The notes under the pieces: model-generated
What the model was told of the DNA's origin: nothing
The model's database searches: none
What the model saw: only the letters and a program-made list of their open reading frames with translations
Part shown: positions 11,977-51,969 of the stretch, in pieces
Position numbering within the stretch: the first letter of the stretch is position 1
Layout: the number at the start of each line of letters is the position of its first letter
Assembly: GCA_951406725.2 (NCBI GenBank)
Contig: OX597814.1
Span: forward strand, 145,514,001-145,578,000
Source of the DNA: Octopus vulgaris
Lineage: Eukaryota
Reading direction: 5' to 3'
Length of the DNA: 64,000 bases
Translations under genes and position numbers: made by a program

Positions 11977-12360
11977 AAGGTGGCGAGCTGGCAGACTCGT
12001 TAGCACGAAGGACGAAATGCTTTGTGGTATTTCGTCTGCAGCTACGCTCTGAGTTCAAATTCCGCCGAGGTCGACTTTGCTTTTCATCCTTTCGGGGTCG
12101 ATTAAATAAGCACCAGTTACGACTTAATCTGTTTGTCTGTCCTTGTTTGTCCTCTCTGTGTTTAGCTCCTTGTGGGTAGTAAAGAAATAGGCATTTTGTC
12201 TGTCTTTATTTCTGAGTTCAAATTCCGCCAAGGTCGACTTTGTCTTTCATCCTTCCGGGGCCGATAAATTAAGTACCAGTTGCGTACTGGAGTCGATCTA
12301 ATTGACTGGCCCCATCCCCCAAAATTTCGGGCCTTGTACTTACAGTAGAGAAGAATTATA
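11977..12360 (+). mobile_element. Composite SINE A: tail-B unit followed by a headless tail-A unit
   Basis: Head, body, tail B (ccttgtttgtcctctctgtgtttagctccttgtgggtagtaaagaaata), then the sequence restarts at ggcattttgtctgtcttta and ends in tail A. Confidence 0.9.
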
Positions 12361-31767: not shown

Positions 31768-33537
31768 CTAGAGTGAGTATTCTGTAGAGCTGCAGATAAG
31801 GATAGCATAGGCTCTCCACAGTTCGTGATTTGTACTGTCGACTAAGATACGTTTCATAGACAGGGACCCTGTTACTGGAAGCTGAATATGTCGTTCCCGG
31901 CGAGTAAAAATTTCAGAGACCGGATTAGTGAACTAGATAAGACGGCATTAATGGGGGCAATAATTAACAATAAATGGCGGAACGCCTTAAAAAGGGCGAT
32001 TAGAATAGAATGGATAAGGTTTAGCAAATGACTAGCAGTAGAAAGGAAGAGAGTAGAGGCAGAATTAGTCAAGAAATTAGACGAGGCTTTTAGAAAAGGC
32101 ATCGCGACCGATGTGCTCGCAGCAAGATTGATACTCGGCCAGTTCTTTAACGCGGAACACGAAAGTTGCGTAGTCAGAGCTAAGGTACGAGCACTTAGAC
32201 ATGACGAGACAAAGCCATCCAATGGGCCCGAATGGTAGAGGAACGGCGTGACAGTAAATACACGGTCCGATCCTTGCTGGACGACGACGGGCAAATGATA
32301 ATTGATCCGAGACAGATGTGTGTAACCTTTGAGCGGTGCTTCGCTCAACTGTTTGGGAGCAGCCGTAGGATGGATTTTGCGCCCTACCTCGACGGGCGGC
32401 CGCGGCTCTCAGTGATAGAGGTGAAGCGCTGCGAAAGGCCAACAAAAGGTTTTGAAATATGGGAAGCAATGTCACAAGGGGTAAATCACCTCATTTGGAT
32501 GGTCTGCCCTACGAGCTTTACGCTTCCGTGCCAGACTTGTTCGGCGACCACTTAGCATAAGTCAACTGCAACTGGCTATAAAATGGAAGAATTCCCCAGT
32601 TTTGTGAACCGAGGAGCAGTGGTGTTTCTGAGAAAAGACCCGAAAAAGGGGGATTATATTGACAACTTTAGGCCCATAACTCTGCTGATTGTAGAATTCA
32701 AAATTTTGGCCAAGGTGTTGACTACGAGTTTGGCGCTTGTCGTCAGGAATCTGGTAGGGGAAGCACAGACACGTGCCATCCCGAAAAGAATCATCTACGA
32801 CAACCTCCACCTCTGGAGCCTTGATCAATTTAGATCAATTTGGATCAGTCGACCACCTATATTGAAATGCTGGTCCTCAAGAAAGCTGGTTTCGGGCCTG
32901 TATTCAGCGGCTGGATCACTGGAATGCACAGCGAGATCTGTTCAGTGGTCAGAGTGAACGGTCACTTCTCGGAGCCGTTCAACATCATGCGTTCAGTCCG
33001 GCAAGTTTACCTCTCTCGTCTATCTTGTATATACTGACTGTCAATCCACTACTACACAAACTAGAGACGTTGAGAGGCATACCGCGTGACCTAAGATGTA
33101 GGAGATACGTGTCAGCTTATGCGAACAACGCGCCACCCAAGTGGGGCAGGATAAGAAACACATAGAAATTATCGGCACCGCTCTCCGGGACTACAAGGCG
33201 GTTTCAGGAGCGACTATTAACCAGGAAAAACCACTGAGCTTGCGACTCAGCACCTGGAGAAGTAAGTCCATGCCATCCAACTGTGTCGTTGGGCGCTGGG
33301 CGGACGGGTTTAATTGCTTCGGGTCTGGATCAGTTCAGACCTCCAAATGGATAAAACCTGGGACGAGGTAACGAGCAGGGTGACTGCTCTCACCCAGAAA
33401 TGGGCCAGGAGAAAGCTATCCATGAAAAGTCGGGCAGAGGTGGCTAACGTGTATATCGCGTCCGTCATCTACTATCGCATGAGCGTCATGCTTTGTCATG
33501 GCCACCATCTGATAACGCAGGAGCATATACTCTTCTG
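31768..33537 (+). mobile_element. Tx1/L1-clade LINE ORF2 pseudogene (end of endonuclease through RT)
   Basis: GPCYWKLNMS; LDGLPYELY; LRKDPKKGDYIDNFRPITLLIVEFKILAKVL; KKAGFGPVFSGWI; KWARRKLSMKSRAEVANVYIASVIYY; many stops and frameshifts. Confidence 0.9.
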
Positions 33538-38612: not shown

Positions 38613-39354
38613 GTAAGGTTGTGAGCTGGCAGAAACGTTAGCACACCGGGCGAAATGCGTACCCGTATTTCGTCTGCCGTTACGTCCTGAGTTCAAATTC
38701 CGCTGAGGACGACTTTGCCTTTCATCCGTTCGGGGTCGATTAAATAAGTATCAGTTACGCACTGGAGTCGATGTAATCGACTTAATCCGTTTGTCTGTCC
38801 TTGTTTGTCCCCTCTGTGTTTAGCCCCTTGTGGGTAGTAAAGAAATAGTTATTTTGTCTGTCGCTACGTTCTGAAAGAAATAGATATTTCGTCTGCCGTT
38901 ACGTTCTGAGTTCAAATTCCGCTGAGGACGACTTTGCCTTTCATCCGTTCGGAGTCGATTAAATAAGTATCAGTTACGCACTGGAGTCGATGTAATCGAC
39001 TTAATCCGTTTGTCTGTCCTTGTTTGTCCCCTCTGTGTTTAGCCCCTTGTGGGTAGTAAAGAAATAGTTATTTTGTCTGTCGCTACGTTCTGAAAGAAAT
39101 AGGTATTTCGTCTGCCGTTACGTTCTGAGTGCAAATTCCGCCAAGGTCGACTTTGCCTTTCATCCTTTCGGGGTCGATAAACTAAGTACCAGTTACGCAC
39201 TGGGGTCGGTATAATCCTTGTTTGTCCTCTCTGTTTGTAGCCCCTTGTGGGTAGTAAAGAAATAGGTAGTTCGTCTGCCGTTACGTTCTGAGTCCAAATA
39301 CCGCTGAGGTCGACTTTGCTTTTCATCCTTTCGGGGTCGATAAATTAAGTACCA
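38613..39354 (+). mobile_element. Tandem array of SINE A tail-B units: one head, four bodies
   Basis: B-box starts at 38691, 38910, 39129 and 39292 (periods 219, 219, 163 bp). Confidence 0.95.
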
Positions 39355-44036: not shown

Positions 44037-44247
44037 TTTTTTTTTCTTTTATTCTTTTTATTTTTTATTCTATTTTTTTATTTTTTAATTTTTTTTTTAT
44101 TATTTTTTTTTTTGTTCTTTCCTTCCCTTTTACGATCCCTCTTGATCGAAAACCTACGCCACCCCCTTTTTTTCATCCCCCAAAAGAAAAGCTCTACCTT
44201 GTAACTTGTCCCATCTGTGTGCAGCCCTGTGTGGCCAATAAAGAAAC

Positions 44248-51731: not shown

Positions 51732-51969
51732 AGGCGGTGAGCTGGCAGAAACGTTAGCACGCCGGGCGAAATGCTTAGCAGTATCTCGTATGGCGCTACG
51801 TTCTGAGTTCAAATTCCACCGAGGTCGACTTTGCCTTTCATCCTTTCGCGGTCGATTAAATAAGTACCAGTTACACACTGGGGTCGATATAATCGACTTA
51901 ATCCATTTGTCTGTCCTTGTTTGTCCTCTCTGTGTTTAGCTCCTTGTGGGTAGTAAAGAAAATGAAATA
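51732..51969 (+). mobile_element. Complete monomeric SINE A tail-B copy with 13-bp TSD
   Basis: Full head to tail B; ggtatactaaact at 51715-51727 and 51970-51982. Confidence 0.93.

Follow-up and report, generated by a model that had tools for sequence, protein, structure and literature searches.

Stacked SINE units restarting at one internal site in Octopus vulgaris: probable repeated insertion into the SINE's own head by a Tx1-like LINE system

Introduction

The closest known counterpart of the locus presented here comes from crocodilians, in which a Tx1-type LINE (Tx1-Mar) and the SINE SINEU-3 both prefer one site inside another mobile element. According to the excerpted text of that study, the target is a Mariner DNA transposon, 90% of SINEU-3 copies are flanked by it, and tandem copies arise by sequential insertion and sandwich a visible duplication (Kojima 2015, PMC4494074). 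The octopus elements probably likewise form tandem copies by sequential insertion, but the target appears to be the SINE's own head, and the units are headless and joined seamlessly. SINEU ends in poly(A), and a LINE-like tail is missing from SINEU-1, whereas the octopus SINE carries one; in addition, target variants sort with element variants in octopus, unlike in the crocodilian system as the same excerpt presents it. Xenopus Tx1L, which lands in Tx1D, and Keno, Kibi and Koshi are likewise sequence-specific Tx1-clade LINEs landing in multicopy sequence, and the targets given for them in that text are a DNA transposon, U2 genes or microsatellites, whereas here the target is a SINE that the LINE landing in it likely also mobilises. 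The same excerpt takes more than 20% of flanks of one sequence type as the mark of target specificity and holds target choice in Tx1 elements to be set mainly by the endonuclease (PMC4494074); pairing between primer and RNA is reported, in the part of PMC3649969 drawn on here, to matter for human L1.

Arrays of similar outline are known from squamates, where SINE-derived satellites and multimers of the Dip SINE also consist of tandem partial-SINE units, the unit at one end being longer than the rest, and multimers account for about half of the Dip copies (PMC10702118, excerpt). Those arrays are put down to DNA duplication and homogenisation, or consist of full-length units, whereas units in octopus are short, heterogeneous among themselves and dispersed, and their occurrence is linked to an insertion site. 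For octopus itself, the tRNA-derived SINEs OK, OR1 and OR2 were described early (Ohshima and Okada 1994, as cited in excerpts of PMC4758252 and PMC5804259), and the present family resembles them by description only, being putatively tRNA-derived, high-copy and from octopus. The main text of a recent octopus repeat annotation, as far as the excerpt extends, makes no mention of nesting or target sites (PMC13282606). The literature covered contained no report of a SINE that inserts into its own head; this is weak evidence of absence, as most subscription papers and Repbase lay outside that coverage.

Here we analyse a SINE array within a 64,000-nucleotide window of the Octopus vulgaris genome (assembly GCA_951406725.2, contig OX597814.1, positions 145,514,001 to 145,578,000 of the forward strand), together with its family genome-wide. 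We consider it probable that the units of this array, which restart at consensus position 48, were laid down by repeated target-primed insertion, that the enzymes came from a Tx1-like LINE with the same landing position, and that a local 219-bp duplication enlarged the result.

Results

The array occupies positions 38613..39354 of the window and lies on the plus strand throughout. Positions within the SINE refer to a 231-nt majority sequence derived from 67 full copies, in which the tRNA-like head covers positions 1-47 and the unit, ending in a tail designated B, positions 48-231. A single head (38617..38663, its first six bases degraded) precedes unit 1 (38664..38847), which is complete and begins with C at 38664. 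An A-box-like motif at approximately 38627-38638 in the head and a B-box-like motif at 38689-38699 in unit 1 were recognised by eye from their resemblance to the Pol III consensus and are candidate promoter boxes. A 35-nt piece (38848..38882), composed of positions 48-73 and the last nine nucleotides of a tail and likely an internally deleted unit, is followed by unit 2 (38883..39066), which is near-identical to unit 1, and by a second 35-nt piece (39067..39101), whose 26-nt segment is identical to that of the first. Unit 3 (39102..39264) is independent of units 1 and 2 and has a 21-nt deletion (positions 161-181), and unit 4 (39265..39354), truncated at its 3' end and running from position 48 to approximately 137, is probably what is left of the original host copy. 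Consensus position 48 stands directly after all three full tails and both 9-nt stubs, in agreement with the first-pass annotation, which had described one head, four bodies and restarts at a single internal site. No target duplication was detected around the whole array (best score 3), and ARAGORN and Rfam searches gave no match.

The same annotation had proposed that units 1 and 2 arose by local duplication, and this is borne out by their shared private changes and by two 219-bp blocks in tandem (38666..39103; 38666-38884 against 38885-39103) that show three mismatches. It had also located the stubs, correctly, at 38874-38882 and 39093-39101, reading each as an extremely 5'-truncated insertion between the two copies of a 26-nt target duplication. 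Near-copies of 26 nt do flank each stub, but they differ at 4 of 26 bases, with all four changes on the left copy, and the stub junction has just two matches genome-wide, both inside this array. The stub is thus one event copied by the local duplication rather than two, its interpretation as a recurrent feature of the family was rejected on the same two matches, and the reading as an extreme truncation with a duplicated target appears weak. Since the 26-nt segments differ, an internally deleted separate unit fits better and is the more likely origin, while a 9-nt insertion with a 26-nt duplication keeps a lower but appreciable probability. One contig of run X2 (39052-39121) crosses the entire second stub at a depth of 42.6 against 53-58 in the flanks; a single stub at approximately one-fold depth in X2 is taken from this as a hint only, because contigs can drop variants. 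The lack of cover over the first stub in X4 and X6 was left out of the evidence. Both outer junctions of the array are present in contigs of runs X2, X3 and X4, a comparison that was swamped by other copies. From the 5'-to-3' age polarity of the family (see below), unit 4 is likely to have been the host; unit 3 would have come next, then the deleted unit, then unit 1 together with the head, and the 219-bp duplication last.

The SINE is a short, high-copy and dispersed element with target duplications of 10-27 nt, the 5' and 3' ends of its head pair, and its tail-B consensus contains no run of four T. The exact junction of tail and position 48 occurs 36,511 times in the 2.8-Gb genome, against none for a reversed-pattern control, and tail B as a whole approximately 129,000 times. 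By eye, approximately 51 of 100 tails listed among these restart at position 48; in an unselected sample of 340 kb, 9 of 22 do so. A second fixed junction, from the tail to head position 15, is present in 3,511 places, represented here by loci L263-L292. Older relatives, designated Y, M and O, have other tails and share the head and the front of the body with the tail-B SINE. The samples are non-random, since most loci lie near the start of contig C1 or were retrieved through junction patterns, and segmental duplicates enter some counts, one site being represented three times in the solo-duplication and neighbour-unit sets.

Where a full copy inserts at position 48 and no homologous join takes place, one expects the old head to be interrupted shortly past this position and a new head to come next. 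Heads broken 9-25 nt past position 48 by a new full head were found in 202 places, and none in the control. At the 30 such loci that were read (29 sites), the host resumes at position 48 after the tail in 23 of 29; it shows a target duplication there, often belongs to an older subfamily and carries its own private bases on both sides. The other sites comprise four solo insertions with extra 5' pieces, one non-SINE site and one continuing at position 15, and the inserted element is of the tail-B type in all 29. Tail ends with unique flanks have a duplication of 10-27 nt, beginning exactly at the tail end, in 46 of 129 cases, against 0.3% of shuffled pairs. Among 33 solo copies of the main variant, the upstream duplication begins with G (25 copies), G (23), T (24), A (25), T (19) and T (20), and hence with the position-48 motif in most of them. 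Some insertions therefore keep a 10-27 nt target duplication that begins exactly at 48, and the target consensus that the first-pass annotation expected from the sequence after the tail and the duplication lengths is seen in solo copies. Its central claim, that target-primed insertion is directed to one site within the head of the SINE itself, is supported at the level of the family, from which insertion in this array is deduced, because the junctions of the array are seamless.

Several further copies illustrate the range of arrangements. Within the window, a solo tail-B copy at 51733-51961 (+) has a 13-nt duplication beginning with the position-48 motif, and a two-unit array at 11979 to approximately 12360 (+) consists of a tail-B copy and, behind it, a Y body that starts at position 48; its outer duplication is imperfect. 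Tail-B copies lie inside opposite-strand SINE copies at loci L027 and L082, forming inverted pairs, and at locus L310 all that stands at position 48 is approximately 25 nt from the tail of a LINE, so that extreme truncation does occur.

The LINE family and the SINE have similar tails and are both found at position 48 of heads from several SINE subfamilies. LINE copies picked by ORF2 and UTR homology alone (n = 29) end exactly at position 48 in 22-23 cases; of the rest, two occupy a look-alike site, one stands at a unique site and has a duplication there, and the others have no readable tail. Genome-wide, two LINE tail patterns stand at position 48 in 51 of 51 and approximately 31 of 39 matches, a flank bias that exceeds the 20% mark of Kojima. 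The LINE encodes RVT_1 and zf-RVT domains, with a zf-CCHC zinc knuckle in ORF1; the best PDB match of its ORF2 is L1 ORF2 (E 4e-26), and its endonuclease matches a PF03372-positive relative at 47%. In protein searches its nearest named relatives are from cephalopods, with no named Tx1 reference among the matches, and the putative label Tx1-like rests on architecture and characteristic motifs. Full copies are approximately 5.3 kb long and start with a SINE head in seven of seven; two copies carry the same private head version, and in other copies the change from host to element falls at differing points, which suggests that the 5' ends were formed by homologous joining. Tail B aligns locally with LINE 3' ends over 48-85 columns, being similar and not identical, and the best alignment is given by the tail of an older LINE branch (four loci) that is not located at the SINE site. 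These alignments are consistent with a LINE that may mobilise the SINE through the similar tail. No LINE with an exact tail B was present among the 100 matches listed of 1,857, and none was seen at the second site, position 15, where all ten loci read were SINEs (189 further matches were listed).

Another Tx1-like LINE family (window 44197-44246 (+); L123-L152) has its 3' end before TATC repeats nearly always, with 3,230 pattern matches, and its truncated copies often have the repeat upstream as well. It was rejected as a partner, its tail being more distant and 0 of 30 test-pattern loci, 29 of them in SINE context, placing it at position 48; the test pattern instead exposed the family described above, which does land there. 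Fragments of a third Tx1-like ORF2, approximately 55% identical and broken up by other sequence, occupy window positions 32715-33535 (+). Three LINE copies (L342, L394 and G000:C7:48637611) stand before the same non-SINE sequence, which is target-like at 12 of 13 bases, and one of them still begins with a SINE head, which suggests that the head travels in LINE RNA. Upstream of another LINE copy, L403:1999-5204 contains two long ORFs and has the appearance of an LTR-type element.

Heads differ at the target base itself, the head of the present array carrying C at position 48. Intact heads genome-wide number 19,049 with C48 and 21,095 with G48, the latter being undercounted through CpG decay, and C48 was found in 58 of 277 sampled tail-B heads. 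SINE junctions with C48 amount to 1% (398 vs 36,511), broken-head sites to 7 with C48 against roughly 190 with G48, and a real insertion was present in one of five C48 sites read; C at this position likely shields a head from SINE re-insertion. The LINE divides along the same base: in one branch the next base is C in 49 of 51 copies and G in none, and in the other G in 37 of 39 and C in none. The C branch is the younger (pairwise identity 96% vs 94%) and sits almost only before C48, and one of its truncated copies has C upstream.

Discussion

In the explanation that we favour, the Tx1-like LINE enzymes would mobilise the SINE through the shared tail, a trans mobilisation proposed from sequence, with the endonuclease mainly setting the cut at position 48 and RNA read-through past the tail possibly helping. 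The new cDNA would then join the homologous head upstream, often replacing it, so that most insertions look seamless, and in the present array the local 219-bp duplication would have doubled units 1 and 2 and the stub. C at position 48 would protect a head from the SINE, while the younger LINE branch, found almost only before C48, may either select C48 heads, as the truncated copy with C upstream would suggest, or write the C itself, as its copies before bodies that rarely carry C would suggest. The array is, on this evidence, an ordinary member of the SINE/LINE system. As the 202 visible duplications represent less than 1% of the 36,511 junctions, the seamless majority rests on inferred homologous joining.

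It is less certain what aims the insertion. The process could be the same and yet the site be chosen mainly by RNA, a read-through trailer pairing with the nicked target and returning the element to a site of the type from which it came; we regard this as a credible but minority possibility. One tail variant accounts for 69 of 100 listed position-15 junctions (of 3,511) but for 2 of 100 listed position-48 junctions, and unique flanks of the same variant often open with the position-15 motif (approximately 27 among 100, by eye). The two LINE branches split fully on the first base, yet their endonucleases show only three fixed amino-acid differences in 248 positions, with two C copies compared. 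C-branch copies precede Y or M bodies in 3 of 22 cases, although Y and M heads have C48 in 1 of 91. Old bodies following a tail show a weak excess of the B-type base at position 63 (17 of 54 vs 13 of 85, p=0.034), and the absence of a four-T run from tail B points the same way, as does the pairing reported for human L1 (PMC3649969, excerpt). Against a main role of RNA, solo copies show no excess of RNA-type bases in the downstream copy of their duplications (3 vs 5), and the idea of RNA-templated bases there was rejected. A complementary guide word in the LINE 3' ends was likewise rejected, matches being mostly of 5-6 nt with none longer than 6 nt in most ends. In the two C copies compared, moreover, one of the three endonuclease differences falls in the loop preceding the catalytic-side D, a loop that we presume to set specificity. 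For Tx1 elements generally, target choice is attributed mainly to the endonuclease in the excerpt of PMC4494074. An endonuclease cut with a possible RNA contribution is favoured.

A broader scenario, which we offer as speculative and rather doubtful, is a three-way chase in which the LINE homed into the SINE, the SINE took up the LINE tail and became its own target, the C48 variant escaped and came to make up about half of the intact heads, and one branch of the LINE re-aimed at it, with the aim carried by RNA past the tail and not by the enzyme.

With respect to the growth of the arrays, adjacent units are nearly as divergent as random ones (0.095 vs 0.110), and 77 of 111 adjacent pairs have no shared rare change. 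The 12 of 111 pairs that are less than 3% apart indicate that duplication adds junctions. Of 85 arrays compared, the 5' unit is less diverged than the 3' unit in 56 and more diverged in 25 (p=0.001), and 193 arrays show 84 architectures, with all pairs of the 41 terminal Y units at least 7.5% apart. A composite SINE with one master was rejected on the latter two counts; the multimeric master that the first-pass annotation had entertained was not found, and the outcome it had regarded as fatal to its proposal, a single composite master together with solo copies lacking a target consensus, did not occur.

It is also conceivable, though in our estimation unlikely, that after a few founding insertions the arrays spread as whole multi-unit Pol III read-through RNAs copied from the last tail. 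In 41 arrays, divergence of the head tracks that of unit 1 (rho 0.31, p=0.047) and not that of the terminal unit (-0.11), and divergence is correlated between unit 1 and the terminal unit (rho 0.40, p=0.011). The unit has no four-T terminator, and 2 of 12 arrays that end in a partial unit carry a duplication directly at its edge, a sign of read-through RNA. In 22 of 47 mixed arrays the outer duplication overlaps with the terminal Y, M or O tail, but outer duplications are also expected from units inserting inside an older copy. The 5'-to-3' age polarity, the old hosts broken by insertions, the 84 architectures and the lack of close pairs among terminal Y units all speak against whole-array spread as the main route. 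Repeated insertion at position 48 remains the preferred reading, with contributions to array growth from duplication and some whole-array copying, to which the rarity of visible duplications, the co-varying unit ages, the near-identical neighbours and the partial-end duplications point.

That the arrays are SINE-derived satellites formed by slippage or unequal crossover, or products of rolling-circle copying of one RNA, is very improbable and excluded as a general cause: such processes, of which slippage was also raised in the first-pass annotation, account for units 1 and 2 here and for the 12 near-identical neighbours, and such satellites are known in reptiles (PMC10702118, excerpt), but the difference between most neighbours nearly reaches that between random units, subfamilies are mixed within arrays, the LINE and the target sites of solo copies share the fixed start, and no ribozyme was matched in Rfam. 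A satellite with homogenised units was rejected on the neighbour comparisons given above. Retrozymes are tandem retroelements that bear a self-cleaving ribozyme and have identical tandem units; a ribozyme, retrozyme or circular-RNA origin was rejected, with no Rfam match at E up to 5 and heterogeneous units. Short satellites do occur at G000:C6:27514186-27514662, G000:C22:20052830-20053642 and G000:C1:14455982-14456497; they repeat either head fragments, with periods of 72 and 84 bp, or full SINEs, with a period of 235 bp, and are likely products of local amplification.

Repeated insertion at position 48 would explain why a large share of a very abundant octopus SINE stands in headless stacks. 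The family also offers tens of thousands of natural insertion events in which the endonuclease may be weighed against RNA-primer pairing in the target choice of non-LTR elements, and the split between C and G at one base provides a ready natural contrast for that question.
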